Source: Candidatus Kuenenia stuttgartensis (GTDB taxonomy: Bacteria; Planctomycetota; GCA-002687715; CAIWVZ01). Taken from it: DNA of 64,000 nucleotides. The stretch spans positions 37,010 through 101,009 of the forward strand of contig CAMARR010000007.1 of assembly GCA_945860915.1 (NCBI GenBank), written 5' to 3'. Positions 1 to 64,000 of this stretch are shown here, piece by piece. Positions within the stretch are counted from its first letter, which is position 1. Every line of letters begins with the position of its first letter. The notes beneath the pieces are model-generated. The model saw nothing but the letters and a program-made list of their open reading frames with translations. It was not told the DNA's origin and did not search any database. The position numbers and the translations under genes are program-made.

Positions 1-18
1 CGGTGGAATCGGTTTCGG

Positions 19-1083
19 TCATCGTGGAGTTCTGCGGATGCGCTCTGAAAGTTCGTTTGCCTCCGCGGTATGTGTCTGATCCGCCGAAGCGACCTTTGCA
101 AGAAGCTCGACGAGACGGTCCACTATGGCCTTCGGCTGGGTGATTCCGGCCTCTGGAGGGGCGGGGATGCTAAGTGCGACCCGCAGCACGGACAAGCAAC
201 CAGCCACATCCTTGGCTGCAAAACGACTCTCGGCGACATGTGTCAGGCCTGGCAAAGCAGCCTGGAAGAGGGTCGTCTCAAGCGCCCCGGCCTCCCCTAG
301 TGCCTTGGCGTCGCCAAGAAGGGTTCTGAGCCGAGTTCCGGCATCAACAAGGGCCTCTGATGCACCCTTATCCAGCGCGGCATCCAAGCTTGCCCACGCC
401 TCTGCGAGGCTCCGCGCCAAGCTCTTTTCCATTCTGAGGGCCGCATCGGCGGCCTTTCGGAGTGCTTCCGAAGAAAGTCTACGATCACCGTCTCGCGACA
501 AGAGTTCGATTCCCCTCAGTCGCCAGGCCTCGACGGCCCCGACACGAATTTCACCTGACCCCGGCGCACGCCTCATACCCTCGTCCAACCAACGCGCGGC
601 GAACTCAATCGGCGTTGCCTTCAACGAACGCTCGATCCGCGCTGCAACCGCCGGATCAGACACCCAAGGCTCCATAAGGAGAACACCGGCGCTGAGGCAT
701 AGTTCGGGCGCGGTGCTACGTGCGGCTGCGCGTTCGAGGATTCGCAGGGCTTCGACGACACGAATGGCCCTCACCGATGGAGATGATTCGCGGCTTCCGA
801 TGTCATACGCAACGACATGCGCACGGAATGCCGCAGCTCGCCAATCAGCTCCATCTGCCGACTCGAGTTGACGCAATGCAGAAAGGGCATCGAGATACTG
901 ACGCGCCGCAAGTGCGCCTCCGACCTCGATCCAAAGGACGTGGCGCCAGATGGGACGAAATGCGCCCTTCGCCATGTCAATAAGCGATCCACTCATCTCG
1001 CCAGTGGGCAGTTCTTCCGTGTCGTGAGGAATAAAGGCTGCGAAGATGAACGCTGCCGCTCCGACCGTCCATGTTGACTTCAT
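19..1083 (-). CDS. hypothetical secreted protein, last gene of the ABC module (Ala/Leu/Arg-rich, helical)
   Basis: Long minus-strand ORF; an internal Met is followed by a hydrophobic signal-like segment (MKSTWTVGAAAFIFAAF). Co-directional with, and overlapping, the upstream permease ORF. No recognisable family. Confidence 0.4.
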   Translation of the reverse strand: MKSTWTVGAAAFIFAAFIPHDTEELPTGEMSGSLIDMAKGAFRPIWRHVLWIEVGGALAARQYLDALSALRQLESADGADWRAAAFRAHVVAYDIGSRESSPSVRAIRVVEALRILERAAARSTAPELCLSAGVLLMEPWVSDPAVAARIERSLKATPIEFAARWLDEGMRRAPGSGEIRVGAVEAWRLRGIELLSRDGDRRLSSEALRKAADAALRMEKSLARSLAEAWASLDAALDKGASEALVDAGTRLRTLLGDAKALGEAGALETTLFQAALPGLTHVAESRFAAKDVAGCLSVLRVALSIPAPPEAGITQPKAIVDRLVELLAKVASADQTHTAEANELSERIRRTPR

Positions 1084-2243
1084 GCGACGTCCTTCCGACT
1101 GTCGCTGCGCGGAGGGACTCCGATGGCGAGCATGGTCCATAGCATCGCGTGGGCCAACGACTCATTCACCATCCCCCAAGTCGGTGCCAGTCCCGCACGG
1201 AACTCGGTGCTCGGATCGACGGGTGTCGCCCCGGGAAGCCATCTGCCAATCAACTCAATCCACTGTGGAACATCCGCACGATGAGTCATCAGCGCTGAGG
1301 CAAGGGTCGCAACGACGATTCCAGATGTCACCGCTAGAGCGCTATGGACGTGGCCTGACATCAACATGACGAACGAAGCAACGCCGATGCCCATCGCCGC
1401 CATGATCAGGGCACCTCGGAACAAGGCTCCGAAGGTCGGCACGGGAGCTCCCGAGACAACCACGCCGCCGGGAACAGCCAAGAGACTGGCAGAAGTTGCG
1501 GGATCTGTGAATTCCAAGTGCAACTTCGTCGTTTTCTGGGTACAGCTCACGGTCTCGACGAGTCTGCCGATTCCGTCCGGACGCACGATCCGCTCCCGCC
1601 ATGGCGAGTCATCGGTTCGATAGCGCATCGTAAGGGACGGAGGCCCAGAAGGTCCGTCGGTAGCTGCCGTCACCCGAAAAGTTGCTGCAACACGAAGTGT
1701 GCCGGCAACTGTTGCCTCTCGGGCGATGGGAATAGTCAGCCTAATCGGAGACTTCTTTGCGCAACTCAAGCCCTCATGGTTGCGCCACACGGGCGTGTGC
1801 AGGATCGATGCTCCGTGAACTTCGACAGGACCATGCCGCCATCGCAGCCACGACGAAGTCTCTGCAGCACCCGCGGAGGCCACGACTGAAATCAGGAGCC
1901 AAGATGCACCGAGATGTCCAGAAACCGTGATTCGATCGCCCGCGAGACGCGCCTCAGCGCGTCTCGCATGTGCCGCACCTCCCATGATGGGGAGCAACGC
2001 TCCTGCAACTAGCGACACCCACCCAATCACACCCAGCGCGAACGAAGCATCGTCTCGCCAAGCGAGGATGTCCGAACCGATGGCAAGGCTCGGCGGAAGG
2101 GCGAGGAGCGAAAGCCCCAGCACCATGAGAGCCACGATCAAGAGCGGGCCTCGAATCCAGCGCGCAACAGCTACTCGTGCGATTCCGAGCAGAGCTCGCG
2201 TCACGTTGTTGACTCGCGTCTTGGAGCATCCGGATAGAGCCAC
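1080..2243 (-). CDS. membrane protein, putative permease partner of the ABC ATPase
   Basis: Several hydrophobic helices flank a roughly 130-aa soluble insert. Sits directly downstream of the ABC ATPase. The true start may be the in-frame GTG near 2204 that overlaps the ATPase stop. Confidence 0.5.
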   Translation of the reverse strand: MALSGCSKTRVNNVTRALLGIARVAVARWIRGPLLIVALMVLGLSLLALPPSLAIGSDILAWRDDASFALGVIGWVSLVAGALLPIMGGAAHARRAEARLAGDRITVSGHLGASWLLISVVASAGAAETSSWLRWRHGPVEVHGASILHTPVWRNHEGLSCAKKSPIRLTIPIAREATVAGTLRVAATFRVTAATDGPSGPPSLTMRYRTDDSPWRERIVRPDGIGRLVETVSCTQKTTKLHLEFTDPATSASLLAVPGGVVVSGAPVPTFGALFRGALIMAAMGIGVASFVMLMSGHVHSALAVTSGIVVATLASALMTHRADVPQWIELIGRWLPGATPVDPSTEFRAGLAPTWGMVNESLAHAMLWTMLAIGVPPRSDSRKDVA

Positions 2244-3025
2244 GCTTCCAGCTCAACCTCGGGGATTCCACACGGCTCAAGCGACAAGCCAACAGATCTC
2301 GCGCGGTCCTGAATCGCGGCCGAATCGGCACCGTCGCGCACCAAGAATCCATGGACTCCGACGCGCGAGGCGAGTTCCGTCGCATTCCCCTGCCAAGACG
2401 CGTGATGGCCTTCAATCAACAATATCTTGGTTGCAAGCCGCAATGCATGTCCAACGACATGCGTTGCGACAACAAGGCAGCGCCCCTTCAAGCGAGCTTC
2501 CTCTAGGACTGAAAGGAATACGCGGCCGCCCCCGGGATCGATTCCTGAATCGGCTTCGTCGAGAATCCACACGGGCGGGTCAACAGCGACGAGAGCAGCC
2601 AATTCAACTCGGCGGACCTGCCCCTTACTCATATTCGAGACTCGAACTCGCTCGAGTTCTTGAACTCCAGTGCGAAGCAACGCCGCCTTGACGACGTCGT
2701 GGCTCAACTTCTTGCCATGCAAATCGGCGGCATACCGCAGGTACTCAGAAGCCGTAAGGAAGCCGGGTGCCGCGGGGTGTTCGCCGACGAATCCGAGCTT
2801 GCGTCGAACATCCGCGCTCCGAGGATCGCCGCCACATATGCGGATCCGCCCCTCCTTCGGGTTCAATTCCCCTGCCAAGAGTCGAAGAAATGTCGTCTTA
2901 CCAGCGCCGTTCCGTCCGAGCACCGCGACAGCTTCGCCCGGCGCAACGGTCAGAGTCAAACCCTCTAGAACCGGAGCTTTGTACGAGAAGCTCACCGCAT
3001 CGGCGATAATTGAAGCTGCATCCAC
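2201..3025 (-). CDS. ABC transporter ATP-binding protein
   Basis: Walker A GRNGAGKTT, ABC signature SKGQVRRV and Walker B ILDEADSGID are present. Length is 274 aa. Confidence 0.88.
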   Translation of the reverse strand: MDAASIIADAVSFSYKAPVLEGLTLTVAPGEAVAVLGRNGAGKTTFLRLLAGELNPKEGRIRICGGDPRSADVRRKLGFVGEHPAAPGFLTASEYLRYAADLHGKKLSHDVVKAALLRTGVQELERVRVSNMSKGQVRRVELAALVAVDPPVWILDEADSGIDPGGGRVFLSVLEEARLKGRCLVVATHVVGHALRLATKILLIEGHHASWQGNATELASRVGVHGFLVRDGADSAAIQDRARSVGLSLEPCGIPEVELEAWLYPDAPRRESTT

Positions 3026-3076
3026 GCCGCCATGCTAGCGCAAAGGACCTCCTTCCCGTGGAGCGCCTCATCTCAT

Positions 3077-7171: not shown

Positions 7172-8716
7172 ATGGACTCGACGCTGACGCTCGATGGACT
7201 CTCCCTGAACCTGCGTGCCGCGTGCGCGGCTGCGCGATTAACCCGACCCAAGATTGCGATCTGCCCTGCGGCGCGTGTTCGTGCACGCGCTGCTCGCAGC
7301 CTTGTGGAACGCATCCTCGCAGAGGGGCGAACTGCGTACGGCATCAATACGGGCTTTGGAAAGTTGGCCACCACCCCAATCCCGCGCGAAAGTCTGAAAG
7401 AACTTCAGCACAACCTCCTCATCTCACACGCAGTCGGCGTCGGTCCGGAGAGCGCGCCGGAAGTCGTAAGACTCATGCTCATTCTCCGGCTGCAGAACCT
7501 CCTCGTCGGACACTCAGGAGTTCGTGACGAGACGATCGACCTTCTCGCCGCCATGCTGAGTCGCGATGTCCTTCCGTATGTTCCCGAGCAAGGGTCGGTC
7601 GGCGCCTCAGGCGATCTCGCACCTCTCGCGCATCTCGCCCTCGTTCTCGAAGGCCTCGGTGAAGCCCGCTTCGATGGCGAACGCATGTCCGGCGGAGAGG
7701 CATTGGCCCGCGCGGGATTAAAGCCCATTCGACTCGAAGCGAAAGAAGGACTCGCCCTCATCAACGGCACTCAATTTTCTACGGCCATTGCAGCGCTTGC
7801 GCTTGACCGAGCATCATCGCTCGCCGCCATCGCCGACATTGCGTGTGCCCTTAGCCTCGAGGGCTTCGCCGGCAGTATTCGCCCATTCGATGCCCGCATC
7901 GCAGCCCTCCGCCCTCACCCTGGGCATGGAGCAACAGCGCGCAACATCCGGCTGTTGATGAGTGGCTCCGAAATTCTCAATTCGCACAAGGACTGCGCCC
8001 GGGTACAGGATCCCTATTCCTTCCGCTGTGCTCCGCAGGTTCATGGAGCATGTCGAGACGCCCTGACTCACTTGCGTGGCGTCCTCGAACGAGAGATCAA
8101 CTCGGTCACGGATAATCCTCTCCTTTTCCCAGATGATGGGGATGTCATTTCCGGCGGCAATTTCCATGCTGAGCCCATCGCGCTCCCCTGCGACTACGCG
8201 ACGATCGCCGCCGCCGAGTTCGCTTCGATCTCGGAACGTCGTCTAGAGAATCTGGTCAATCCAGACCTTTCGGGGCTTCCGCCCTTCCTCGCAGGGGGCC
8301 GCCCAGGAGTGAACTCGGGGCTCATGATTATTCAGGTCACAGCCGCGGCTTTGGTTAGCGAGAATAAGTCACTGTCGCACCCAGCGTCTGTGGACTCGAT
8401 TCCGACGTCGGCCAGCAAGGAAGACCACGTCAGCATGGCCCCGATCGCGGCTCGAAAGTTCAGATCCGTCCTCGAGAATTCAGCGCAGGTTCTTGCCGCT
8501 GAACTTCTTGCCGCTCGCTTTGCGCTTCATTGGCGTCAACCCATGCGAGCCGGGCGTGGAGTCCAGCCCGCATTCGAGAAATTGCGCGAGTGCATACTTC
8601 CCCCCGGCGACGACCGCGCCTTTGGGAGGGATCACGCTGCGGCGAAAGCACTCATTGACTCGGGTGAACTTCTCGCCGCGGTTGAGTCTGCCGTGGGCCC
8701 TCTCGAACAACCCTGA
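7172..8716 (+). CDS. hutH: histidine ammonia-lyase
   Basis: MIO-forming Ala-Ser-Gly motif in GSVGASGDLAPLAHL. Full-length aromatic amino-acid lyase fold. Confidence 0.9.
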   Translation: MDSTLTLDGLSLNLRAACAAARLTRPKIAICPAARVRARAARSLVERILAEGRTAYGINTGFGKLATTPIPRESLKELQHNLLISHAVGVGPESAPEVVRLMLILRLQNLLVGHSGVRDETIDLLAAMLSRDVLPYVPEQGSVGASGDLAPLAHLALVLEGLGEARFDGERMSGGEALARAGLKPIRLEAKEGLALINGTQFSTAIAALALDRASSLAAIADIACALSLEGFAGSIRPFDARIAALRPHPGHGATARNIRLLMSGSEILNSHKDCARVQDPYSFRCAPQVHGACRDALTHLRGVLEREINSVTDNPLLFPDDGDVISGGNFHAEPIALPCDYATIAAAEFASISERRLENLVNPDLSGLPPFLAGGRPGVNSGLMIIQVTAAALVSENKSLSHPASVDSIPTSASKEDHVSMAPIAARKFRSVLENSAQVLAAELLAARFALHWRQPMRAGRGVQPAFEKLRECILPPGDDRAFGRDHAAAKALIDSGELLAAVESAVGPLEQP

Positions 8717-8744
8717 CTTCTGAACAAGGCTTAGAACCACGAAC

Positions 8745-10403
8745 ATGGCAACGAGCAAGATTTACCGCGCCCCAACGGGAAACACCCTTTCATGCAAGTC
8801 CTGGCCGATCGAAGCGGCCTATCGCATGATTCAGAACAATCTCGATCCGGACGTCGCTGAAGACCCGGCGAACCTCGTGGTGTATGGGGGGTCGGGCAAA
8901 GCCGCGCGGTCGCCCGAGGCGCTCGAGGCGATCTTGCGAACGCTGCGCACCATGAACGTCGACGACACCCTGCTTGTCCAGTCAGGCAAACCGGTTGGAG
9001 TCTTCAGAACACATGCGGACGCACCACGCGTCCTCATCGCGAATTCCAACCTGGTTGGAAAATGGGCTACATGGGAGCACTTCCGCGATCTAGAGCGTCG
9101 TGGGCTCATCATGTTCGGACAGATGACGGCGGGCTCATGGATTTACATCGGATCTCAAGGCATCGTTCAAGGGACCTATGAGACGTTCGCCGCATGCGCT
9201 GATCGCCACTTCGGTGGATCTCTTAAGCAACGACTCGTGGTCACCGGCGGGCTTGGGGGCATGGGTGGCGCGCAGCCCCTCGCCGCGTGCCTTACGGGCG
9301 CAACGTGTCTCGCAGCCGAGGTTGATCCTAGCCGTGTCGAGAAACGACTGAAGACACGCTATCTCGATGAAGCAACGCCAAGCCTCGACGAAGCCATCGC
9401 CCGTGCGCTGGCATGCAAGGCCAAAGGTGAAGCTCGTTCGATCGCCTACATCGGCAATGTGATTGACCTTCTTCGCGCATTGAAAGACCGGGGCATCACG
9501 CCCGATATTCTCACCGATCAAACGTCCGCCCACGATCCGCTCTTGGGCTACGTGCCTGACGGAACGACTCTAGCGGATGCTGTTTCGATGCGGCAATCCG
9601 ACCCAGTTGGCTACCAGAAGTTGTCCGTCGCCGGCATGGTTCGCCACATTCAGTTGATGCTTGATCTCAAGCGGCGCGGAGCGGTGACTTTTGACTACGG
9701 CAACAACCTACGCGGGCAAGCCGAGGCCGCAGGTGCCACCGAGGCCTTCGAGATTCCCGGATTCATCCCCGAGTACATCCGCCCCTTGTTCTGTGAAGGC
9801 CGAGGTCCATTTCGGTGGGTTGCTCTGTCGGGCGACCCGGCCGATATCCACAAGACGGATGAAGTCATCCTTAACGAGTTCTCGCACTTGACGTCACTCT
9901 GTCGATGGATCCGGCTCGCGCGTGAACGCATTGCGTTCCAAGGGCTGCCAGCTCGCATTTGCTGGCTCGGATACGGCGACCGCGCAAAATTCGGATTGAG
10001 AATAAATGACATGGTGCGCACGGGCGAGCTCAGCGCGCCGATCGTGATTGGCCGCGACCATCTCGACTGCGGATCCGTCGCGTCTCCAAATCGTGAATCG
10101 GAGGCAATGAAAGACGGAACCGATGCGGTGGCAGACTGGCCGATCCTCAACGCGCTCGTCAACACGGCAGGCGGAGCAACCTGGGTTTCATTCCATCACG
10201 GCGGCGGCGTCGGAATCGGCTATTCGTTGCATGCGGGACAGGTCATCGTGGCCGATGGCACCGAGGCCGCTGCCCGCCGAATTGAGCGCGTGTTGACATC
10301 GGACCCGGGAATGGGCGTCATCCGACACGCGGATGCGGGATATGAGGACGCAATCGCATTCGCCGAGAAGGCCGGGGTCCGGATCCCGATGCGAGAGTCG
10401 TAG
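8745..10403 (+). CDS. hutU: urocanate hydratase
   Basis: 552 aa. Urocanase-typical blocks ([36 protein letters not shown]). Follows hutH. Confidence 0.9.
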
Positions 10404-11658: not shown

Positions 11659-11672
11659 GACCCCGCCTGCGA

Positions 11673-43322: not shown

Positions 43323-43369
43323 GCCTCAACCATAGCGACACGCCGACCGTTCGTCGCTAGAATCAGGCC

Positions 43370-50642: not shown

Positions 50643-50704
50643 GATGCCCTCTATTCTAACCCTCTCTGATCGTAGTATGCGGAACTCTGTACGCTGCAAA
50701 GAAC

Positions 50705-52351: not shown

Positions 52352-53171
52352 CCCATCGGGGCGCCTTACCACGTTCCTTGTCCATTCTGGCGAGGAACTG
52401 CAACGCCCCAAGTCCGACATCAATTGCGTGAGATTCAGCCTTGGCGCGTTGTCCGGCTTCGAGAAAGACGTCCGTCGCCCGATTCGCGAAAACCGCGCAA
52501 ACAGCGCCTGCGCGGCACCCGAGGAGATGCGCTAACACGAGAAGGGACGATGCCTCCATCTCAAGATTGAGGACCCCCTGATCGGCTAATTGTTTTGGCA
52601 GTTCCGAGAACCGCCCCTTGAGCACTTCATGGTCACGCCCCTGCCAGCCGTAGAAACCTGGTGCGGTCGCAGTAAGACCTACGTGGTGCCGGTGGCCGCA
52701 AGACGCGGCTGCAGACGACAACGCGAGGACAACCTCATGGTTCGCGACAGCCGGAAACCCTGGCTCGACGAAGGCTGCTGTCGTGTTCTCAAGGCGAACT
52801 GCTCCCGTTGTGATCACGAGATCGCCTGGCTTCATGTCCGCGCGCAACGCGCCGCATGTCCCGACCCTGATGATGTCCGGCGTTTCAACGCATCGGAGAA
52901 GTTCAACAACCGCGATTTCTGTGTTGTCGGGGCCCATTCCCGTCGCCATGACTGTGACGTCAAGCCCCTTCCAAATGCCCGTGAAGGTCACAAACTCACG
53001 GTGGGTTTTGGGGAACCCAGGGCGAATGGAATCGAAGCGCTTGGCAATCGCGGCCGCGCGGGCCGGGTCGCCAACAAGCAGAATCCGACGAGCCACATCT
53101 TTGGGCTTCAGGCCGATGTGATATTGCTCACCGGCAGGACCCTTCGGTCGATTGGCACGTTGCTGGCTCAT
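52332..53171 (-). CDS. nucleoside phosphorylase (PNP/UDP family; DeoD/Udp-like)
   Basis: PNP_UDP_1 fold ([26 protein letters not shown] ... [15 protein letters not shown]). Overlaps the deoC stop by 4 nt. Confidence 0.8.
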
Positions 53172-53938
53172 CCTTCTCCCCTAACGATCTTCACTCCGGC
53201 ACTCGCGCCGACGCGCGTTGCGCCGGCGGCGACCATGCGCTCGAGCGTCGCGCGATCCTTGACGCCTCCGGAAGCCTTCACGCCGAGAGAAGGACCCACT
53301 TCGGAGCGCATGAGAGCGATATCAGCAACGGTCGCACCGCCGGTTGAAAACCCGGTGGAAGTCTTGACGAAATCAGCGCCGGCCTTGACAGAGAGTCGAC
53401 ACGCACGGCGTTTCTCATCATCAGTCAGAAGGCACGTTTCCAAAATCACTTTGACTGTGATTCCCGCACGGCGCGCTGCGGTAACGGCCTCGATATCCCT
53501 AAGGACATCGTCATCCCGATTGGACTTGAGTAGGCCGATGGCGATGACCATGTCAATCTCGGTCGCCCCAAGTTCAATAGCCAATCGTGTCTCAGTGGCC
53601 TTCACGGCCGCCAATGTCGCGCCCAACGGGAATCCAACGACGGTGCACGTTTTAACGCCTGTGCCCGTGAGGCGGCGGGCGCATCGCTCAACCCAGATGG
53701 GATTAACACACACCGACGCAAATCGATGTTCCGCAGCCTCATCGCAAAGCCGGTCAATCTCATACTGCATAGCGTCGGGCTTGAGAATCGTGTGATCGAT
53801 CAGCGCCGCTACACTTGGAATTGCGTTCTTGGGCGATGGAGTAGTTCCGATGCGATCAGCACCCGCAACCACAAGCGCGTCGGTGACCGCATCAACCAAG
53901 CGCTCAAATGCGGCCGGATCCATGGCTCGACGGGTCAT
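53168..53938 (-). CDS. deoC: deoxyribose-phosphate aldolase
   Basis: Class I DERA. Schiff-base Lys context (FVKTSTGF) and catalytic Lys (VGVKASGG). Collinear with Thermotoga-type DERA, with about 12 extra N-terminal residues. Confidence 0.9.
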
Positions 53939-54216
53939 GTTGGTCGGCTCTCCATGTCGAGCCCGTCAACCACGGCAACGATGACTGCTTGGACAGGTGT
54001 CGACTCACTCCCGATCATCATGCGCGCGCTGCCGCCTTCCTTCAGGATGACGACGAGATCTCCTTCGCCCGAGTCCACATGATCCACGGCCACTAACGCG
54101 CGTCCCGTGGGTGTGCCATCAGGATTTACAGGCTGGGCCAAGAGCAAACGCGCCCCCGCCAATTCACCATCGGCGATGGTGGCGTATACGGCACTCTGAA
54201 TGCGCGCAAGAATCAC
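53935..54216 (-). CDS. bacterial microcompartment vertex protein, EutN/CcmL/PduN family (BMC-P), copy 3
   Basis: [30 protein letters not shown] ... [17 protein letters not shown] ... SARMMIG ... AVIVAVVD matches the Pfam PF03319 pattern. GTG start overlaps the previous stop (GTGA). Confidence 0.78.
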
Positions 54217-54503
54217 CGAACGTCTCCGGGTAGAGGAAGTCGGTCTAGGATCGCAATGACTGACGCATCCGTCGCCACGAGATCCGTGGCATAGAGCCGC
54301 TTCCATGGAATCGCAGCCTCGCTTGCTGTCACATAAAGGACAATTTGCCCGGGACCTGCTCCAACTGTGTCAGTGGCGGCGATGACAGCACCATGCGGCG
54401 CTCCGGCTGCATTGAGAGGCTGCAGCATCAACATGCGACCGCGTTCAAGCGCTGCTTGCTTGGCCGTTGCCCAAACGGAACCAACGACACGAGCAATTTC
54501 CAT
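54213..54503 (-). CDS. bacterial microcompartment vertex protein, EutN/CcmL/PduN family (BMC-P), copy 2
   Basis: MEIARVVGSVWATAKQAALERGRMLMLQPLN ... ATDTVGAGPGQIVLYVTASEAA ... ASVIAILD is the canonical BMC-P pattern. 96 aa. Confidence 0.85.
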   Translation of the reverse strand: MEIARVVGSVWATAKQAALERGRMLMLQPLNAAGAPHGAVIAATDTVGAGPGQIVLYVTASEAAIPWKRLYATDLVATDASVIAILDRLPLPGDVR

Positions 54504-55207
54504 CAGGAACCTTCGATGAGCGCCACACGTCGGGTGTGGCGTCCCCCTTCAAAGGCCGTGTCGAGGAATGCGTCGACGATAGCCACCATCTCTTGCTCTT
54601 TCACGATTCTCGAACCAAGGCACAGGACGTTCGCGTCATTGTGGCTTCGAGCGGAGATGGCCTCGGCTACGACGGCGCAAGGCGCCGCGCGGACACCAGC
54701 ATGCCGGTTGCATGCCATCGCCGAAGCGACACCGGACCCATCAATGACAACAGCGCGTGCAACTCTTCCGGAAACTACCGCAAAGGCCGCTTGGTGGGCA
54801 AAGTCCGGCCAATCGACGGCTTCCGTCGAATGTGTTCCAAGATCGATGACCGTAATTCCTTTTGAAACAAGCAGAGGCTTCAGCGCCTCCTTGGCAGCGA
54901 ATCCTCCGTGATCTGATGCCACGGCAAGCAGATTCTTCACGGGCAATGGCCCGGCCTTCATGGCGACGCCGAGACGGTCAGCCGTCTCCCGCGCCAGCGG
55001 CGTCACCAATGAACCATCCGGCACTATTACAGGACTTCGAGCGGTGTACGCCGCCAAGACATCGGCCTCTGTTACGAGTAGACGTTGACGCCTATCTGCG
55101 GCGTCATCGAAACGCCTCCATCCGGCCACGCTCGCGGGCATCGAGGTCGGAGCGAACTTCTCGACAAGCGCGTCGCGGACGGCACGGCGGATCGCTTCAC
55201 GATCCAT
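54503..55207 (-). CDS. ribose-5-phosphate isomerase B (RpiB/LacA/LacB family) with about 85-aa N-terminal extension
   Basis: The C-terminal 149 aa align along the whole of E. coli RpiB (SDHGGF ... VIDGSGVASAMACN ... SHNDANVL ... FEGGRH). The N-terminal 85 aa have no RpiB counterpart and begin with an amphipathic helix. Confidence 0.8.
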   Translation of the reverse strand: MDREAIRRAVRDALVEKFAPTSMPASVAGWRRFDDAADRRQRLLVTEADVLAAYTARSPVIVPDGSLVTPLARETADRLGVAMKAGPLPVKNLLAVASDHGGFAAKEALKPLLVSKGITVIDLGTHSTEAVDWPDFAHQAAFAVVSGRVARAVVIDGSGVASAMACNRHAGVRAAPCAVVAEAISARSHNDANVLCLGSRIVKEQEMVAIVDAFLDTAFEGGRHTRRVALIEGS

Positions 55208-55529
55208 CCGGCTGTACTCCTAGATCAGTAACGCCCATCCTGTCAAACACTGCCCAATCACGGTCGACGATTTCTAGATCATCGACGATCGCAACGATCA
55301 CGGCATCAACCGCCTTATCCTTGGTGGCCTCCGTCTGACGTGCGCTCGACCCCTGAGTGACGAGCACAGTTTCACCCATCCCCGCGCCAATGACGTCGAC
55401 GGCGATCACGAACCCATCCCCCAGCGTTCGATCGGGCTTCAGCGCGCGTACAATCATCCACTTGAACCCCGAGACACGGGGATCTTTGCGGGTGGCCCAC
55501 ACGGTTCCTACAACTCTTCCAAGCAGCAT
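55197..55529 (-). CDS. bacterial microcompartment vertex protein, EutN/CcmL/PduN family (BMC-P), copy 1
   Basis: MLLGRVVGTVWATRKDPRVSGFKWMIVRAL ... VDVIGAGMGETVLVTQGSSARQ ... AVIVAIVDDLE. Start taken at the internal Met. Confidence 0.8.
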   Translation of the reverse strand: MLLGRVVGTVWATRKDPRVSGFKWMIVRALKPDRTLGDGFVIAVDVIGAGMGETVLVTQGSSARQTEATKDKAVDAVIVAIVDDLEIVDRDWAVFDRMGVTDLGVQPDGS

Positions 55530-55594
55530 GTTGTTTGACGGCTTGCGCCGGCCTTCCAAAGATAGAGGATAGTGCACGGTCCGCAAGCGTCCCC

Positions 55595-56287
55595 ATGAAG
55601 TCATTCCCCCGCGATCTTCTCGGTTCCTCTCGGCTCATCCTCCTCGCGATGGCCGTCTTCGCGTGGCTTTGCAAGGGGGTGCCCAACTTCATGCAAGGCG
55701 CCCCAGAAATCGTCGTGGATATGGCTGATTACTGCGGTGAGTTTGCGCCTCGGCTCCTAGCTGGGTCAGCAACCGTAGCCGGCGTCATTCACTTGCGCGG
55801 CGTTGAGCGATGGCAGTCACTGATCATCCCTTTGACGTTGCTCTTGGCCCTATTCGGGCTGCATCTTCGCGCCATTAACGCTCCAAACGATGTGGGCCAG
55901 CTCGAAGACCTTGCGACCACGGTCCTTACTCTGGCTTTCCCTTTCGCTGTTCTGATTCCTCTCGCCCGACGGGGCCCCGGATGGATAGGTTCCTTCGTCG
56001 TTTCTGCCCTTTGCTTTGGCATCGGACTGGCAATGGCATTCACTCGGCCGAACCGAGCAGCGTCGTACCTGAGTTCCGGCCTGGGCCTTCCCCCAACCGG
56101 AATCTACGCGCCACTGGCGGTCGCGATTTTGGCCGCGTTACTCCCGCTGGCACTCTCTCGAAGGTACGGACTCACGGTCGCAATTGCGACGTTTGCGTCG
56201 GCGCTACTGCCCCCTCTATGGGGCGACGGAGTTCGGCTTGCAATCTGCGTTATAGGAATGGCGCTCAGCTCAGCGCCGACGATCTAG
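55595..56287 (+). CDS. hypothetical polytopic membrane protein
   Basis: About 6 hydrophobic helices. It is the only long ORF in an otherwise gene-free 0.7-kb segment between the BMC-P operon and the BFN gene. Start taken at MKSFPRD. Could be an antisense artefact. Confidence 0.4.
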   Translation: MKSFPRDLLGSSRLILLAMAVFAWLCKGVPNFMQGAPEIVVDMADYCGEFAPRLLAGSATVAGVIHLRGVERWQSLIIPLTLLLALFGLHLRAINAPNDVGQLEDLATTVLTLAFPFAVLIPLARRGPGWIGSFVVSALCFGIGLAMAFTRPNRAASYLSSGLGLPPTGIYAPLAVAILAALLPLALSRRYGLTVAIATFASALLPPLWGDGVRLAICVIGMALSSAPTI

Positions 56288-56850
56288 GATTTCTCGTCGT
56301 CTGACGACTCATCAGAGAATTCGTCGTCGTCGAGCTCATCATCATCATCTTCGTCGTCGCTTTCCGCTCCGTCATCTTCCTCGTCCGCCTCGTCTCCATC
56401 CTTACTGTCAAGCATCGCCAGTTGCTCAGTGAAATCCTCCACGGTCTCAAGAACGCTCGTTGTGACCATAAGAGGAACTCCCCACTTCAACGCGAAAACC
56501 ATAGCGTCAGAAGCACGGGTATCGAGTCTTACCTCATTGCGATGCGAGTCAAGCTGTTGGCTCAGAATCAACGACGCACAATAGACTCCATTGTGAACAC
56601 TTGAGATCACAGCCCGCGTTACTCCGATGTCGAAACCGCGCAGAGCAAATTCCATAAGATCATGGGTCATCGGTCGATCTGCTCTGACTTTTCTGAGCTC
56701 ACGATCGATTGCCGCCCCTTCTACCTGACCGACGAAGATGACGAAGAGTTTGGTCGGATGCTTGATTGCAACGCCCACGGTCCCGCTTTCGCGAAAAACC
56801 AGAACGCGGTCGATCGATACCTCGACTGGTACGTTGGGATCAGTTGCCAT
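56284..56850 (-). CDS. bifunctional nuclease (BFN/DUF151) domain protein with poly-acidic C-terminal tail
   Basis: BFN-domain pattern (RPMTHDLMEFAL ... RASDAMVFAL) followed by about 45 residues of almost only Asp/Glu/Ser. Confidence 0.65.
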   Translation of the reverse strand: MATDPNVPVEVSIDRVLVFRESGTVGVAIKHPTKLFVIFVGQVEGAAIDRELRKVRADRPMTHDLMEFALRGFDIGVTRAVISSVHNGVYCASLILSQQLDSHRNEVRLDTRASDAMVFALKWGVPLMVTTSVLETVEDFTEQLAMLDSKDGDEADEEDDGAESDDEDDDDELDDDEFSDESSDDEKS

Positions 56851-56890: not shown

Positions 56891-57508
56891 TCAAGGGACA
56901 ATCGAGACGGCCGTGCCGATTGGCGCATGTCTCCACAACTCAATGACATCGGCATTAGAGAGCGCGATACTGCCATCGGTGCAATGAGACGTCGAGACAG
57001 GAAAGAAGTTCCCCTGAATGCCAAACGGGCCGCCAATCTCCGGGGGGCATTTAGGGCGTTCCCCTCGTCGACGAGCGCGAATAATGCCGTCAAATGTCTC
57101 GCGATCGATGAGCCCGTGGTCGAATGCCCGGATGGCGTCGTCTTCTGATGGGAAGTCGATCTCCATCCACCGCGAGCCGCGCGCCAGAATCTCCTCGTGC
57201 ACGGCCACACGCGTGATGACATAATCCCCAAGTGGAGTGCTATCCCGTCCCACCCCGAGCATCCCGGGCACCCTCGCACGGCCGAATCCGGCAGGATAAC
57301 GCTTTACAAGGGTTTCGCCGTCGTAGAGTTCAACGACTCCGCGCGAAATCGTCGCAACGATTCGAGGTTCGCCGAGAGGCACCATGAGTCCTGCGACGGC
57401 TGCCGCCTCGGGAAGCGTGTCATCGGCGCCTTCTCGAAGCCATGCGCTTGTAACAAGCACGTAGCCGATCACGCTGAGAATCGAAGCTTGTATTAGGAAT
57501 CGAATCAT
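56891..57508 (-). CDS. L,D-transpeptidase (YkuD) family protein
   Basis: N-terminal membrane anchor. The C-terminal catalytic region contains a His ... SHCTDGSIALSNADVIELW stretch resembling the YkuD active site. Confidence 0.55.
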   Translation of the reverse strand: MIRFLIQASILSVIGYVLVTSAWLREGADDTLPEAAAVAGLMVPLGEPRIVATISRGVVELYDGETLVKRYPAGFGRARVPGMLGVGRDSTPLGDYVITRVAVHEEILARGSRWMEIDFPSEDDAIRAFDHGLIDRETFDGIIRARRRGERPKCPPEIGGPFGIQGNFFPVSTSHCTDGSIALSNADVIELWRHAPIGTAVSIVP

Positions 57509-57575: not shown

Positions 57576-58724
57576 CTAGCCGCCGGGGTTCAACGAACGC
57601 AATTTCGCGACAGCCCTGCGCGTGATATCGACGGCAAAATCAACTTCCTCCGATGTGTTTTCAGCGCAAAGCGAATAGCGAACTGCGCCGAGAAGACGCT
57701 CGTATCGAAAGCCCATGGCCTCGAGAACATGGCTGCCGCCAAACTGTGCAGCGCTGCAGGCAGACCCCGCAGAGAGGCAAAGCCCCTCACGCGCCGCAGT
57801 CAACACAACGGACGACCCCTCAATCCTAGGGAACGACACGTTGACGGTACCAGGCATCCGTCCATCACCGCGACCGTTGACCACGCAACCTTCAATGGTC
57901 AACAGGGACTCTTCTAGTCTGGCTCCAATTCGAACAAGAGCTGCATTCCGCGATTCGATGTCCGTCGAGGCGATTCTGGCTGCGACCCCCATTCCGACAA
58001 CTCCGGGAACATTCTCTGTACCTGCGCGACGGCCCGATTCGTGTGGAGCGCCGTGGAGCAGCCTCCGGAATCGAGCGTCGCGTCGGACAAAAAGTGCACC
58101 CACACCCTTCGGGCCGTGAAACTTGTGCGCTGAGATCGAGAGAAATTCACAACCGATGGTAGTGACATCCAGCGGAACCTTGCCTGGCGCTTGAGTCGCG
58201 TCGATGTGGAAGGGCACGCCATAATGTTGGCAGAGGCTTGCGACCTTGCCGACCGGGAGAATCGTCCCGGTTTCGTTGTTGGACCACATGATCGAACACA
58301 ACGACGCCCCCTTCGCGAGCTCTGAATTGAGCACCTCGAGGTCTAGTCGACCTTCTCCGTCCACAGGAATGGAAACAGGTTCCACGCCTTCGCGACGAAG
58401 CGCAGCAGCCGTCTCAATCACGCATTCGTGTTCGATTGCCGAGTAGATCACCCGACGCGTACCGCTCCGGTCCGCCGCGACCGCCGCTCGCATCGCGGTG
58501 TTGACGGATTCCGTCGCACCGGACGTGAAAACGACCTCGGTTTCCCGGCAATTCAGAAGGCGCGCGACATCCAATCGGCTCGACTCAACGAGGACCCTCG
58601 CCCTAGCACCGGCGCCGTGAAGTGAGCTCGGATTCCCCCACGATTCCGACAGCACCATGTGAACCGCACGCACAACTTCGTCGCGAGGCCGTGTCGTTGC
58701 ATTCGAATCGAAATAAATTTCACG
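57576..58724 (-). CDS. iscS: cysteine desulfurase (class V aminotransferase, IscS/NifS-like)
   Basis: PLP Lys context (SISAHKFHGPKG) and active-site Cys loop (LSAGSACS). Confidence 0.9.
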   Translation of the reverse strand, partial: REIYFDSNATTRPRDEVVRAVHMVLSESWGNPSSLHGAGARARVLVESSRLDVARLLNCRETEVVFTSGATESVNTAMRAAVAADRSGTRRVIYSAIEHECVIETAAALRREGVEPVSIPVDGEGRLDLEVLNSELAKGASLCSIMWSNNETGTILPVGKVASLCQHYGVPFHIDATQAPGKVPLDVTTIGCEFLSISAHKFHGPKGVGALFVRRDARFRRLLHGAPHESGRRAGTENVPGVVGMGVAARIASTDIESRNAALVRIGARLEESLLTIEGCVVNGRGDGRMPGTVNVSFPRIEGSSVVLTAAREGLCLSAGSACSAAQFGGSHVLEAMGFRYERLLGAVRYSLCAENTSEEVDFAVDITRRAVAKLRSLNPGG

Positions 58725-58983
58725 CATGCGAGTTTCCCACGAGGCGACGCCACAAACGGATGAGCACATGCGGCCTTAGGGCTCGCTCTTGCTGAAGAAC
58801 CGTCGCGATGTCGGGAAGACAAGACTTGCATCCGGTCCCGGCCTTGCAGGCGCGCGAAACTGCCTCTAGCGAATCAGCACCTGACGCTCGGATGATCTCT
58901 CTGACACGACCGGCGCTCACATTGTGGCAATGGCACAACGTTCGAGTTGGATCATTCCACTCCTCAGCGCTAGGGGCATTCAT
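58720..58983 (-). CDS. BFD-like [2Fe-2S]-binding domain protein
   Basis: CxC ... CKAGTGCKSC four-cysteine pattern typical of Bfd/NifU-N-type 2Fe-2S domains. Overlaps the iscS start. Confidence 0.6.
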   Translation of the reverse strand: MNAPSAEEWNDPTRTLCHCHNVSAGRVREIIRASGADSLEAVSRACKAGTGCKSCLPDIATVLQQERALRPHVLIRLWRRLVGNSHA

Positions 58984-58987
58984 GGCA

Positions 58988-60046
58988 TCAGATTATCAGC
59001 GGTGATCTAGCAAGCACTGCCGCGACCTGGAGGGGAACATGCACTACCTGCCGACCTCGCGAGGCTCTGGTTCCGAGAATCTTGGGGATGGAAACGACCC
59101 CTCCCTCACGGAGCACCTCGGCGCGGAAGAGCATGGACTCGAGCGGAGTACCATCAATCGCAAGTCCACCATCGTCCGGCCGCCAACCCACAGCAGCCAA
59201 TGCCGCTGCGCGACGTTCCAGCGCAAGCCCAAGCACTGCATGGGCGTTCGGGCCAAGTCGTGCGCCGGTACGAACGATCGCCACGAGCGGCGCTGCAACG
59301 CCGCCGATCGCGTCATTGATCGCGGTTATGGCCTTCTTTCGCCGCTTCGGGAAGAGCGCAACTTTGGTGAGCGAAGAAGGCCGAATTCCAAAGAGATTGG
59401 TGGGCAATTTGGAGGAAAGCGGTGCTCCGTCAAGGACAAGCACCTCCATCGGAGGAAGCCACGGTCTTGCTAGGATGTCTACTAAAGTCTCGGCAGCGTA
59501 GTCAAGCGAAGTCGCTGCATCATGCCAGACGACGACGGAGACAGGCAATGGTCCTGGCGGACTCTCGGTGGCCGGCATGGGCTCACCCTGTCGGCGTCGA
59601 CCTAGGAGAGATAGTCTTCCTGTTTCGCTTCCGTCGATGACTCCAGGCAGACATGCGGCCTCGATGAATCGGCGCGCCCGGCGCGCTTCGGGCAGGGATG
59701 GCATAGGGACGTCGAGCAGGAACAGTCCCTCGCGACAGACTCGGCGAAGCACGGTTTCAATACGGTCGATCGCGTCTGTTCCAATTTCCGAGAGTATGGC
59801 CAGTGAAACGATATCGCCCTTGTCGCGAGCGACGGGCACGGGAGTCTTGCGCGCCAACGAGCGCAGGACGTCCGGTGGCACGTCCTCTGCGACCCAGACT
59901 TCGGACGCCGACACGGCCACGTTGTCAGAAACATCCGGCGCGGGATTCCCAGCGAGACGGGCCGGTCCGACGTGCTCGCCAAATGAGATCGTCTGCAACA
60001 ATCCCGCCCGCGGCATGAGGACAAAGTTCGGTGAATCAGAAGACAT
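58988..60046 (-). CDS. hypothetical protein, possible GT-A (family 2-like) glycosyltransferase fold
   Basis: Weak GT-A-like blocks (VSVVVWHD ... VLVLDGAP). The start is uncertain: the ORF extends to 60118, overlapping uppP. Confidence 0.4.
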   Translation of the reverse strand: MSSDSPNFVLMPRAGLLQTISFGEHVGPARLAGNPAPDVSDNVAVSASEVWVAEDVPPDVLRSLARKTPVPVARDKGDIVSLAILSEIGTDAIDRIETVLRRVCREGLFLLDVPMPSLPEARRARRFIEAACLPGVIDGSETGRLSLLGRRRQGEPMPATESPPGPLPVSVVVWHDAATSLDYAAETLVDILARPWLPPMEVLVLDGAPLSSKLPTNLFGIRPSSLTKVALFPKRRKKAITAINDAIGGVAAPLVAIVRTGARLGPNAHAVLGLALERRAAALAAVGWRPDDGGLAIDGTPLESMLFRAEVLREGGVVSIPKILGTRASRGRQVVHVPLQVAAVLARSPLII

Positions 60047-60866
60047 GCAAGACCAAATGACACGTTGAGACGAGTCCCAGTGCCAAGCAGTAGAAGCCAA
60101 AAGGACGCAAGCTTCCACGTCGCACGAATGGGAGCAGCCACCTAAGTGCTGCCACTCCCACGGCGAACGCCACGGCGCTTCCGATGATCACCGCTGTGTA
60201 ATTGACGACATTTCCCTCTGCATTGAATACGTCTTTTCCCTTGAGAGCAGCAGCACCAAGATTTGGGGGAAGTGACATGAGGAACGCGAACGGACCGACG
60301 ATTTCTCGCCGAACACCGCAAAGAAGCCCAGTTCCAATCGTGGCACCCGATCGGGAAAAACCTGGGAAAAACACGGATACCGACTGCGCAAAACCCATTG
60401 CGATCGCTTCTCGCACCCCAGCGTCTCTAGGTCCTGGTCGAAATCGGCTGGCAACTAACAACCAAATTCCCGTCCCAATCAAAACGACCGAAACGACGTC
60501 AGGCCGTTCGCGAAACCCCTCGAGGAATCGTTTAAAAATCACTCCAACAAGAACGGCCGGAATCGCGCTCATTGCGACGAGCACCAACATCCGAAAATCG
60601 TGGTTTTCGGACATGGATTTACGCCACCGCATCGGTTTGAGCAGGACCGGCACGCCTCTGACCATTGAGAGGACCTCTCGCCGAAACACCACAATCACGG
60701 AAAGAGATGTTGCGAGGTGAAGCAGGGCATCGAACGCCAAATTCTGCGGAACTCGATCCCCGCCGAGCCAAGCGCGGGCCAGCACGAGGTGCCCCGACGA
60801 GGATATCGGGAGGAACTCTCCGACACCTTGGATGAGTCCAAGCAGGGCAGCGTCGATCCATTGCAT
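60036..60866 (-). CDS. uppP: undecaprenyl-diphosphatase
   Basis: BacA motifs (GVGEFLPISSSGHL and FPGFSRSGATI). Start taken at MQWIDAAL. Confidence 0.85.
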   Translation of the reverse strand: MQWIDAALLGLIQGVGEFLPISSSGHLVLARAWLGGDRVPQNLAFDALLHLATSLSVIVVFRREVLSMVRGVPVLLKPMRWRKSMSENHDFRMLVLVAMSAIPAVLVGVIFKRFLEGFRERPDVVSVVLIGTGIWLLVASRFRPGPRDAGVREAIAMGFAQSVSVFFPGFSRSGATIGTGLLCGVRREIVGPFAFLMSLPPNLGAAALKGKDVFNAEGNVVNYTAVIIGSAVAFAVGVAALRWLLPFVRRGSLRPFGFYCLALGLVSTCHLVLHVF

Positions 60867-60899
60867 GAGGAATGCTAGCGAACGGGGTAGGATGCCCCC

Positions 60900-62285
60900 A
60901 TGAGTTCTGCCCCCCGCCCTGTCATGAAACCCGTCAACAGCGTCCTCGAGCTCATTGGGTGCACCCCCATGGTGCGTCTCCGACGAGTCGCCGACGGCAT
61001 AAGAACTCAAGTAATCGCGAAATGCGAGATGTTCAACCCTGGAGCAAGCGTCAAAGACCGAATCGGCCTTTCGATGATTGAAGCGGCCGAGCGTGATGGC
61101 CGTTTACGTCCAGGTGGTCTTGTCGTCGAGGCAACATCCGGCAATACCGGGGTTGGATTGGCCTTGGCTGCAGCGATCAAGGGATATCGAACGCTATTCA
61201 CGATTCCCGACAAGATGTCCATGGAGAAGATCAAGCTTCTCAAAGCCCTCGGAGCCGAGGTTATCGTAACGCCGACGGTTGCCGCCACACATCCCGAGTA
61301 CTACGTCACCGTTGGGCGCCGCATCGCGTCAGAACACACCAACGCGATCTTCATTGACCAGTTCTACAACGAGGTCAACCCCGCGACGCATGAGCGCTCC
61401 ACCGGTCCCGAGATATGGGAGCAAACGGATGGCCGCATCACGGCACTCGTCGGAGGAATGGGCACGGGTGGCACCATGACGGGATGCAGTCGTTATCTGA
61501 AATCCAAGAACCCGGCGATCCGAATCATCGGCTCCGATCCCGACGGCTCGACATTTAAACATGTGAAGGACACCGGACATTGCGGTACCGGGCAGCCCTA
61601 TAAGATCGAAGGCATCGGCGGAGACAAAGTCCCTGGCACTCTCGATCTAAAGTCGATCGATGAGATTCGCAGAGTCAACGACAAGGACTCGTTTCTCATG
61701 GCCCGCCGTTTGGCTCGGGAAGAAGGACTTTTCGTTGGTGGTTCGTCGGGAATGGCAGCCGTTGTTGCACTCGACGTAGCGCGAGAAATTGACGATCCCG
61801 CGGCAATTGTCGTTGTCCTGCTCACCGACACGGGCGAACGCTATTTATCGAAGCTTCACAGCGACGAGTGGATGACAGAAAATCGATTCCTCGATCCGAC
61901 GGACGTGAGGGTTCGTGACCTTTTGGGAAAGAAGCGCGGGGGCGCACTGATTTCTGTGACTCCCGAGAAGACTGCAAAGCAAGTACTGTCAATCTTTACT
62001 CAAAACAACATCTCGCAAATGCCTGTCGTGGACGGGGATCGATGCGTCGGCTCCGTGAAGGAAGGCGACCTGATGGCGCGCATCATCGAAGTCCCAGCAA
62101 CCCTCGATGTTTCCATCAGCCGATTAATGGGCCCTCCGTACCCCGTGGTCACGGAGTCTGATCCCGTGGATCATGTCGCCCGGCTCTTCACGCGAGAGAA
62201 CGAGGCTGTCGTTGTCCAATCGGCAGGAGCGCTCAATGGCATCCTGACTCGTTACGACCTCATCCAACATCTGACGGGTCGCTAG
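60900..62285 (+). CDS. cystathionine beta-synthase (PLP fold-II domain plus tandem CBS domains)
   Basis: PLP Lys in GASVKDR, TSGNTG glycine loop, C-terminal CBS pair. Confidence 0.85.
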   Translation: MSSAPRPVMKPVNSVLELIGCTPMVRLRRVADGIRTQVIAKCEMFNPGASVKDRIGLSMIEAAERDGRLRPGGLVVEATSGNTGVGLALAAAIKGYRTLFTIPDKMSMEKIKLLKALGAEVIVTPTVAATHPEYYVTVGRRIASEHTNAIFIDQFYNEVNPATHERSTGPEIWEQTDGRITALVGGMGTGGTMTGCSRYLKSKNPAIRIIGSDPDGSTFKHVKDTGHCGTGQPYKIEGIGGDKVPGTLDLKSIDEIRRVNDKDSFLMARRLAREEGLFVGGSSGMAAVVALDVAREIDDPAAIVVVLLTDTGERYLSKLHSDEWMTENRFLDPTDVRVRDLLGKKRGGALISVTPEKTAKQVLSIFTQNNISQMPVVDGDRCVGSVKEGDLMARIIEVPATLDVSISRLMGPPYPVVTESDPVDHVARLFTRENEAVVVQSAGALNGILTRYDLIQHLTGR

Positions 62286-62307
62286 TCTCCCAGTCGCGAA
62301 ATGAAAT

Positions 62308-62347
62308 AGGCCGCGTCTTCCGTCGAAGGCGCGGCCTGCTTTTGTGT
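62308..62347 (+). terminator. intrinsic terminator downstream of the cystathionine beta-synthase gene
   Basis: AGGCCGCG ... CGCGGCCT perfect 8-bp stem (inner CTTC/GAAG pairing) followed by GCTTTTGTGT. Lies between convergent genes. Confidence 0.45.
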
Positions 62348-62363
62348 ACTCAACTCGCGATTG

Positions 62364-62567: not shown

Positions 62568-62645
62568 ACGGCTTCTCCGAAATGTTCGATTTGACCATTC
62601 CCCGTATGAGAATGGACCGCCATGTTGGCACGTCTTTCGATGAGT

Positions 62646-63017: not shown

Positions 63018-63190
63018 CGCAGCATCTCCACAATATCCACAAGAGCAGTCATCTGCCCCCGCATGGATCGTAATGCTAGACCAAATAGGGATCTAGGGCA
63101 AATTTGCGATATCAATTCCGAACATTCCCAACGTCACAAGTCGTGATTCTCCACAGCCAGCGCGTAGCCGTTCCGAGCACGAGGATTCCC

Positions 63191-63658
63191 CTACTGGACG
63201 CTCCATGCCGAAATGAGGTCGTCGGGAGTCGTCGCTTCCATAACCATCTGGCGCACTTGGGGTTGCATCCATGCCTCTGCAAGCTGCGCAAGAAAACCCA
63301 GGTGCCGCGACCTTGCCTCGGGCGTTGAAGGCTCAACCAAGACGACAGCGCAAACCGTGGGTTGCCCATCCATGGCTTCGAAATCAACGGGGTGCATCAA
63401 GGTCACAACAGCGGCAACCGGCTCACTAAGGCCGACGCAAAACCCGTGCGGCACCGCTAGCCCATGCTCCAGCCCTGTGGCGAGGTCCCTCTCCCGTTCA
63501 AGGACTGCCTGCAGGGCAATTGTTCTTAGTTCCTCGGAAATCGCGCCCGCCTTGCATAGCTGCGCAACCGCCTGAGTAGCGACATCAAAACGATCCACCG
63601 CAGTTACATGCAAAAGGGCATGTTTGGGGACGAGAATATCCGCGAGCGACGTGGGCAT
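63191..63658 (-). CDS. ptsN: PTS EIIA type-2 protein (nitrogen-regulatory PtsN-like)
   Basis: EIIA-2 fold with the conserved His in GLAVPHG. 155 aa. Confidence 0.7.
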   Translation of the reverse strand: MPTSLADILVPKHALLHVTAVDRFDVATQAVAQLCKAGAISEELRTIALQAVLERERDLATGLEHGLAVPHGFCVGLSEPVAAVVTLMHPVDFEAMDGQPTVCAVVLVEPSTPEARSRHLGFLAQLAEAWMQPQVRQMVMEATTPDDLISAWSVQ

Positions 63659-63831
63659 GGTTGGAACCTAGCGGATGGGGTACCGCATCCAAGGGTGTTG
63701 ATCGAACCGGGAAGTCTACGAGGTCAAGTGACGTAGATGCACAAATCGGCCTCGACGAACCCTGCTCCAACACGCACAATCCAAACCGCTGCAACTTCGA
63801 GATTATGCCTGAGCTAGGCAAGTTGACGTTG

Positions 63832-64000
63832 ATGCCGCTTCGAGGAGACATCGTGGTCCAACGCTTGCGTATCCCCGTATCTGCCAAGGCACTTGTGACT
63901 GTTTTGTGCATCGCATTTTCTGCGTTTGCGCAATCACGTCCTGCCGAAGACACCTATACCTATTCGATCAGCGCCGAGGGCATCCCCCTCGAAACGCTCG
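63832..64000 (+). CDS. 5' fragment of a secreted protein (runs off the window)
   Basis: ATG followed by a signal-peptide-like sequence (ALVTVLCIAFSAFAQS). No stop codon before the window end. Confidence 0.3.
   Translation, partial: MPLRGDIVVQRLRIPVSAKALVTVLCIAFSAFAQSRPAEDTYTYSISAEGIPLETL

Follow-up and report, generated by a model that had tools for sequence, protein, structure and literature searches.

An operon of microcompartment vertex genes and SPU signature enzymes without facet genes: a probable piece of a dispersed planctomycetal microcompartment

The window analysed here is a stretch of 64,000 nt from contig CAMARR010000007.1 (assembly GCA_945860915.1, positions 37,010 to 101,009). 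Near its right end, on the minus strand, lies an operon of six genes that encode three pentameric vertex proteins (BMC-P) of a bacterial microcompartment (BMC), ribose-5-phosphate isomerase B (RpiB), deoxyribose-phosphate aldolase (DeoC, also called DERA) and a nucleoside phosphorylase. Genes for the hexameric (BMC-H) and trimeric (BMC-T) facet proteins, for aldehyde dehydrogenase (AldDH) and for phosphotransacylase (PTAC) are absent from the window. The operon recurs in related lineages and is under purifying selection, and the window is probably one piece of a dispersed, SPU-like microcompartment that matches the catalogued type FRAG5, in a host of the phylum Planctomycetota. Related loci in other genomes are referred to below by our designations (L011, L018 and so on), with one further contig from the JGI database designated P0016.

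The three vertex genes, all members of PF03319 (EutN/CcmL), are found at ~54-55.5 kb, where they were detected both by tblastn with EutN, PduN and CcmL as queries and by Pfam. Gene calls on the parent contig gave the operon order P1-RpiB-P2-P3-DeoC-nucleoside phosphorylase over positions 52332-55577 (Table 1). Every junction between these genes is an overlap of 1-11 nt (TGATG, GTGA, ATGA, ATGA): the RpiB stop is overlapped by the start codon of P2 (TGATG), the GTG start of P3 overlaps the P2 stop (GTGA), and the phosphorylase gene overlaps that of DeoC by ATGA. The six-gene operon is translationally coupled. P2 and P3 are adjacent, with an overlap of 4 nt, and RpiB stands between P1 and this pair. 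P1 was called as a protein of 126 aa starting from the GTG at 55577; all orthologs keep the ATG start at 55529 (MLLGRVVGTVWAT, 110 aa), which places the gene at 55197-55529. P1 is 42% identical to PduN and 40% to CcmL, and P3 is 93 aa long as called on the parent contig. Pairwise identity among the three vertex proteins is only 29-34%, and we therefore regard them as old paralogs, not recent duplicates. A promoter and terminator scan gave fewer matches than were found in shuffled sequences.

An earlier reading of the window from the sequence alone (the sequence-only reading) had reported no BMC-H, BMC-T, AldDH or phosphotransacylase gene within the 64 kb, and this was borne out by each of the searches made. 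Gene calling based on the GC content of third codon positions was not discriminating at the composition of the window, and exhaustive scanning of open reading frames (ORFs) was used instead. The ORFs of at least 60 aa in all six frames, 385 in number (55,070 residues) and including those open at the window ends, were divided into three batches for the Pfam-A search, and four positive controls per family (Escherichia coli EutM/K/L/S, EutE, EutD and Salmonella enterica PduL) were added to every batch. The S. enterica PduL control scored E = 1e-72. For PF00936, PF00171, PF06130 and PF01515, no ORF of the window matched at E <= 0.01, and exactly the four controls matched in every batch. When the raw DNA of the window was searched by tblastn with 14 BMC-H, BMC-T, permuted BMC, AldDH, Pta and PduL queries, nothing scored below E = 0.4, and frameshifted remnants of facet or core genes are therefore absent as well. 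The same queries picked up such genes in the classical BMC loci L021, L022 and L028, and in L033.

A longer contig in ENA (ERZ27280294:k141_3162940, 157,433 bp) contains the window in reverse-complement orientation and extends beyond both its ends. The gene calls of this parent contig with their precomputed Pfam assignments, over positions 46,767-130,406 (the window and 10 kb on each side, 84 kb in all), included none of the four families. The annotations in this interval were housekeeping genes, type II secretion system (T2SS) genes and the like, and other aldehyde-consuming enzymes (alcohol dehydrogenase, DmpF-type) were not among them. Only 8.4 kb of the window lie to the right of the operon, and the stretch shown to be free of facet genes therefore measures ~18 kb in this direction and ~62 kb in the opposite one.

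The operon is conserved well beyond this contig. The exact RpiB fusion, with its N-terminal extension, is present in NCBI, ENA and Logan assemblies, and the next relatives are 63-66% identical; a locus search with the alignment of the RpiB extension found 5 loci in species-representative genomes, a collection that does not include the MAG of the window. The six genes recur in the same order in L011 (50 kb), the P0016 contig (93 kb, seen as a Pfam gene list only), L018 (54 kb), L019 (65 kb), L023 and L027 (57 kb), and no BMC-H, AldDH or PduL gene occurs within 6-10 kb on each side of these operons. The phosphorylase keeps its position in all six, and wider synteny is also retained in L011 and the P0016 contig. 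Named genomes that carry the operon include the metagenome-assembled genomes (MAGs) Planctomycetia bacterium F1-140-MAGs146 (SXUL01) and Planctomycetota bacterium ARS1434 (NZBC01, locus tag CMJ83). Judged from sequence comparison, the host is a deep-branching, uncultured organism of the Planctomycetota: nearly all named matches of its IF-2 were to this phylum, the best named match being 53% identical and the nearest match overall 70%.

Comparison of the window with five of these loci (L011, L018, L019, L023 and L027) showed that the operon genes are under purifying selection. P1 orthologs are 63-79% identical over aligned codons, and DeoC is 85% identical in L011 with a ratio of nonsynonymous to synonymous substitution rates (dN/dS) of 0.05. 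Across the five comparisons dN/dS was 0.08-0.13 for P1, 0.10-0.19 for P2, 0.14-0.18 for P3 and 0.05-0.28 for the enzymes, on dS values that were saturated, that is, above 1.5 or beyond the range of the method. All six ORFs are intact in six lineages, their N-termini and start contexts are conserved, and the overlapping junctions are preserved.

RpiB and DeoC both carry extensions at their N-termini (Table 1), and the phosphorylase is without an extension of this kind. Aligned across 19-28 homologs, the RpiB extension consists of a conserved helix (consensus M-DRExIRxxVRxAL), a Pro/Ala linker of variable length and a conserved module of ~40 aa (LVTEADV...IVTPLARETAxRLGV). The AlphaFold2 model of RpiB (mean pLDDT 89) predicts the helix at residues 3-18 (pLDDT 85-91), the linker at residues 19-43 (~50-58) and the module at residues 44-85 (~90), where it forms a small alpha/beta unit preceding the RpiB fold. 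The encapsulation peptides of PduP and EutE have the same architecture of a helix followed by a linker. DeoC and its orthologs likewise begin with a helix resembling an encapsulation peptide, with a similar hydrophobic periodicity. We infer from this pattern, the position of the extensions and the AlphaFold2 model that both are putative encapsulation peptides.

Two features of these extensions were observed in addition. The ~40-aa module of RpiB (residues 44-85, window positions 54950-55078), which no Pfam model detects, is found as the C-terminus of proteins in three classical BMC loci: L021:10001-10123 (a Thermincola MAG), L022:10001-10114 (a Desulfobulbaceae MAG) and L028:7953-8105 (a metagenome contig). 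In L022 and L028 the protein bearing the module is encoded directly upstream of a BMC-P gene. Among the proteins with the module, one is flavoprotein-like (PF02441) and another has a weak match to the C-terminal end of PduM (PF15953, E = 0.45); a pairwise BLASTP comparison with the L028 protein gave 47% identity over 51 aa (E = 9e-9). The module may be shared among proteins associated with the shell or its vertices. In four planctomycetal relatives (L018:7011-7877, L019:11195-12055, L023 ~8150-9061 and L027 ~11320-12187), a Cys-rich insert, VCxxCxGxCxRxCxFKxDDF, separates the putative encapsulation helix of DeoC from the aldolase domain; DeoC of the window and of L011 is without the insert.

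A related unit in a more distant organism of 51% GC joins the same genes to a facet gene. At L033:8379-11257, a single operon encodes RpiB-DeoC-BMC-H-BMC-P-BMC-P-BMC-P, in which RpiB is 43% identical to that of the window and carries the same extension, and BMC-H is a PF00936 protein of 101 aa. No AldDH or PTAC gene lies within 8-10 kb on either side of it, and L033 is a minimal shell-plus-signature-enzyme unit. The cargo-and-vertex unit thus does co-occur with a hexamer gene in nature. Two other loci, L016:8699-11604 (MAG Planctomycetota GCA_040219065.1) and L020:6758-8335 (MAG Acidobacteriota), encode the extended RpiB and DeoC with no detectable BMC-P nearby, the order in L016 being nucleoside phosphorylase, a 114-aa protein without a Pfam match, RpiB and DeoC. 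The cargo genes are therefore separable from the vertex genes as well.

Table 1. Genes of the six-gene operon and of its surroundings in the window.
Feature	Position	Strand	Evidence or remark
P1, BMC-P paralog 1 (vertex pentamer)	55197-55577	minus	PF03319, E = 5e-27
RpiB, ribose-5-phosphate isomerase B, with 93-aa N-terminal extension	54503-55207	minus	PF02502, E = 7e-47, residues 95-231
P2, BMC-P paralog 2	54213-54503	minus	PF03319, E = 2e-22
P3, BMC-P paralog 3	53935-54216	minus	PF03319, E = 1e-19
DeoC/DERA, deoxyribose-phosphate aldolase, with ~43-aa N-terminal extension	53168-53938	minus	PF01791, E = 9e-18, residues 44-250
Purine/uridine-type nucleoside phosphorylase (PNP/UDP family), last gene of the operon	52332-53171	minus	PF01048, E = 7e-38
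PGM/PMM-family mutase, candidate phosphopentomutase	41946-43322	minus	Pfam
5'-nucleotidase	43370-44938	plus	Pfam
CNT nucleoside transporter	44938-46221	plus	Pfam
Adenosine deaminase	46218-47222	plus	Pfam
Cytidine deaminase	47219-47605	plus	Pfam
FAD-dependent oxidoreductase, 548 aa	50705-52351	plus	PF12831
~230-aa protein	55595-56287	plus	no Pfam match
Bifunctional-nuclease-domain protein, upstream of the operon	56284-56850	minus	PF02577, E = 7e-25
YkuD L,D-transpeptidase	56891-57508	minus	listed with the conserved upstream block
Conserved block upstream of the operon	57576-61010	minus	
Class-V aminotransferase/cysteine desulfurase	57576-58769	minus	in the conserved upstream block
BFD-like [2Fe-2S] protein	58720-58983	minus	in the conserved upstream block
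Histidine ammonia-lyase and urocanase (hut)	7172-10403	plus	

The operon lies close to a cluster of nucleoside-scavenging genes, from the candidate phosphopentomutase to the cytidine deaminase (41946-47605; Table 1), which also flanks it in L011, L015 and the P0016 contig. Taken with the phosphorylase inside the operon, this cluster would cover the whole route by which nucleotides from outside the cell become (deoxy)ribose-5-phosphate, on which DeoC and RpiB act. Such a route supports the function in degradation of DNA and nucleosides that has been proposed for SPU compartments. A gene for a bifunctional-nuclease-domain protein (PF02577) upstream of the operon is also found at the corresponding place in L011 and in the P0016 contig, and its product is possibly a nucleic-acid-scavenging accessory.

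The gene content of the operon is that of the SPU group of microcompartments, the signature of which comprises a PF01791 aldolase, a PF02502 isomerase and at least three BMC-P genes, two of them always adjacent (Axen et al. 2014; Sutter et al. 2021, Supplementary Data 2). All of these are present in the window, and P2 and P3 adjoin one another in the manner reported for the 'grey/orange' pair of BMC-P triplets. As in SPU1-7, DeoC and RpiB accompany at least three BMC-P genes with two adjacent, and the substrate proposed for SPU compartments is deoxyribose-5-phosphate from DNA or nucleosides. Main SPU loci also carry BMC-H, AldDH and usually PTAC (Sutter et al. 2021). Unlike them, the operon has none of BMC-H, BMC-T, AldDH and PTAC within 84 kb. 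The combination of BMC-H with BMC-P expected of a main locus is not found, as there is no PF00936 gene in the window or in 10 kb beyond either end; nor is an AldDH (PF00171), usually with PTAC (PF06130), since only the controls matched these families in the ORF scan of the window. Satellite loci, as defined by Sutter 2021, encode shell proteins, alone or together with enzymes, lack either BMC-H or BMC-P, and lie away from a main locus; with BMC-P and enzymes and no BMC-H, the window has the content of such a locus.

Dispersal of this kind has been described for the fragmented types, in which the components are found at up to six genomic places and a BMC-P triplet is shared (Sutter et al. 2021, Nat Commun 12:3809). 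One of them, FRAG5, known from 3 loci that are all from Planctomycetes, has the SPU signature enzymes, a BMC-P triplet and components at several genomic places; its set is made up further by two BMC-H, two BMC-Tdp that resemble CcmP, one BMC-Ts and an AldDH that bears an encapsulation peptide at its C-terminus (Sutter et al. 2021). PTAC goes unmentioned for FRAG5, and the arrangement of its pieces is not stated in the published text (Sutter et al. 2021). The window resembles FRAG5 in its planctomycetal host, in the combination of PF01791 and PF02502 and in a triplet of distinct BMC-P genes, and its 84 kb without facet genes are consistent with shell and core genes that are not in one locus. 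It differs from the description in that its operon includes a nucleoside phosphorylase and sits amid nucleoside-scavenging genes.

Other types are less close. The HO type I satellite of Haliangium ochraceum (two BMC-P and an aldolase) likewise combines vertex genes with an aldolase, at a distance from the genes for the hexamer and AldDH, and HO too has a BMC-P triplet. Its aldolase, however, is of class II (PF00596) and not DeoC, and its BMC-P genes belong partly to the main locus and partly to the satellite. FRAG8, mostly from Gemmatimonadetes, shares the BMC-P triplet, PF01791 and sometimes PF02502, and its AldDH with a C-terminal encapsulation peptide is often off-locus. The window differs from FRAG8 in phylum, and the RpiB proteins of Gemmatimonadales are without the N-terminal helix but share the conserved N-terminal module.

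We believe that a dispersed SPU-like compartment of the FRAG5 type, of which this operon is one piece, is the probable explanation of the window. In such a system, the neighbouring genes would dephosphorylate, import and deaminate nucleotides and nucleosides scavenged from the environment, the operon phosphorylase would cleave the nucleosides to (deoxy)ribose-1-phosphate, and the mutase would convert this to the 5-phosphate. DeoC and RpiB would be targeted into a protein shell by their N-terminal amphipathic helix on its flexible linker, and the three BMC-P paralogs would cap the vertices of this shell. The hexameric and trimeric facet proteins and an AldDH that consumes acetaldehyde would be encoded elsewhere, no nearer to the operon than ~18 kb in one direction and ~62 kb in the opposite one. 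We place these components elsewhere because of the FRAG5 precedent, the tags resembling encapsulation peptides, the selection on the vertex genes and the hexamer gene in the L033 operon. A distant locus was among the alternatives raised by the sequence-only reading, and it is the best supported of them, by the SPU enzymes, the putative tags, the conserved layout and FRAG5, although by inference only. The same reading had framed the system generically as aldehyde-detoxifying and had overlooked that the operon itself names the pathway through DeoC, RpiB and the nucleoside phosphorylase; the PduL/Pta core that it expected is not part of the catalogued FRAG5 description.

Several observations weigh against this explanation. 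For this organism, no BMC-H, BMC-T or AldDH has been seen in the 84 kb covered of the 157-kb contig. In the parts of the Sutter trees that were searched, neither CMJ83 nor FRAG5 labels appear, and no relative carrying the operon is directly tied to FRAG5. The putative encapsulation peptides were not separable from the negative control by a hydrophobic-moment statistic, and their assignment is therefore based on pattern, position and the AlphaFold2 model; Pfam recognised neither the RpiB nor the DeoC extension.

The absence of every core component from the window is also what would be seen if the operon contributed cargo and vertices to a separate main locus of the same genome, complete in itself, for example one of the PVM type with its BMC-H, BMC-T, AldDH and PTAC. 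In that case the shell would have been built for some other purpose, and the deoxyribose pathway would have been added to it as a further substrate. Add-on satellite modules have been described (EUT modules for HO, SPU3 and SPU6; Sutter 2021), and PVM loci are widespread in Planctomycetes (Sutter 2021). We nevertheless consider this alternative unlikely: PVM loci have a BMC-P triplet of their own and would not need a second one, the published description presents FRAG5 as a dispersed type that stands alone and includes BMC-H, BMC-T and AldDH, and there are no PVM genes in the 84 kb. Less probable again is a lineage with no BMC-H or BMC-T at all, in which the BMC-P triplet and the tagged DeoC and RpiB would serve in a facet-less assembly or in a role outside any shell. 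If true, the triplet could act, for example, as a scaffold of pentamers or as a minimal cage, and the PF03319 fold would have been put to a new use; both the lack of PF00936 in 84 kb and the conservation of a facet-less operon under selection in several lineages are compatible with this reading. Against it, the planctomycete genomes catalogued with this gene set (FRAG5) encode BMC-H and BMC-T at other places, the homologous operon of L033 includes BMC-H, and no BMC-P-only system was found in the literature consulted. Recruitment of the BMC-P proteins to another role, which the sequence-only reading had listed, found no positive evidence.

That the operon is a decaying remnant, its shell and core genes lost and the rest heading to pseudogenisation, we regard as very improbable. 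The sequence-only reading had considered a reduced or degenerate system, and the absence of the partner genes from the window is all that speaks for it; for the genes that are present it is contradicted by six ORFs intact in six lineages, dN/dS of 0.05-0.28 on saturated dS and the preserved junctions. Since these genes are intact and under purifying selection, the degenerate reading fails. Hardly any weight is left for facet or core genes that lie within the window and were overlooked as divergent, short or frameshifted: such BMC-H and BMC-T genes were looked for and none is present, the Pfam scan with its working controls and the tblastn of raw DNA having found nothing.

The 84 kb of contiguous sequence without facet genes speak for FRAG-type dispersal as real and not an artefact of fragmented MAG assemblies, and in a deep clade of planctomycetes the unit of vertex triplet and signature enzymes has been conserved as an operon under selection. 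The nucleoside-gene context would provide independent genomic support for the processing of deoxyribose from DNA or nucleoside scavenging proposed for SPU compartments. The current picture of BMC biology is unchanged by these results, the layout having already been catalogued as a fragmented locus in Planctomycetes. Dispersed BMC loci with BMC-P triplets form a category already described, which makes the alternatives offered by the earlier reading less novel than it supposed.

Further genes lie around the operon (Table 1). The ~230-aa protein without a Pfam match is encoded divergently from P1, and in L011 and the P0016 contig a gene on the opposite strand holds its position; its product is possibly a regulator or accessory protein. 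The block upstream of the operon that is conserved in relatives encodes BacA and a ~350-aa protein without a Pfam match, among others. The PF12831 oxidoreductase gene is convergent with the operon, which it overlaps by 20 nt at its end, and is syntenic in L011 and L015 and absent from the P0016 contig. Past the right-hand edge of the window (parent contig 46,767-56,400; L008:1-9806) are two tandem secretin genes followed by T2SS E, F and pseudopilin genes, an arrangement that L011 and the P0016 contig also have next to the operon block. In the far left part of the window, the hut genes adjoin a glycosyltransferase and polysaccharide-export cluster and are unrelated to the microcompartment.

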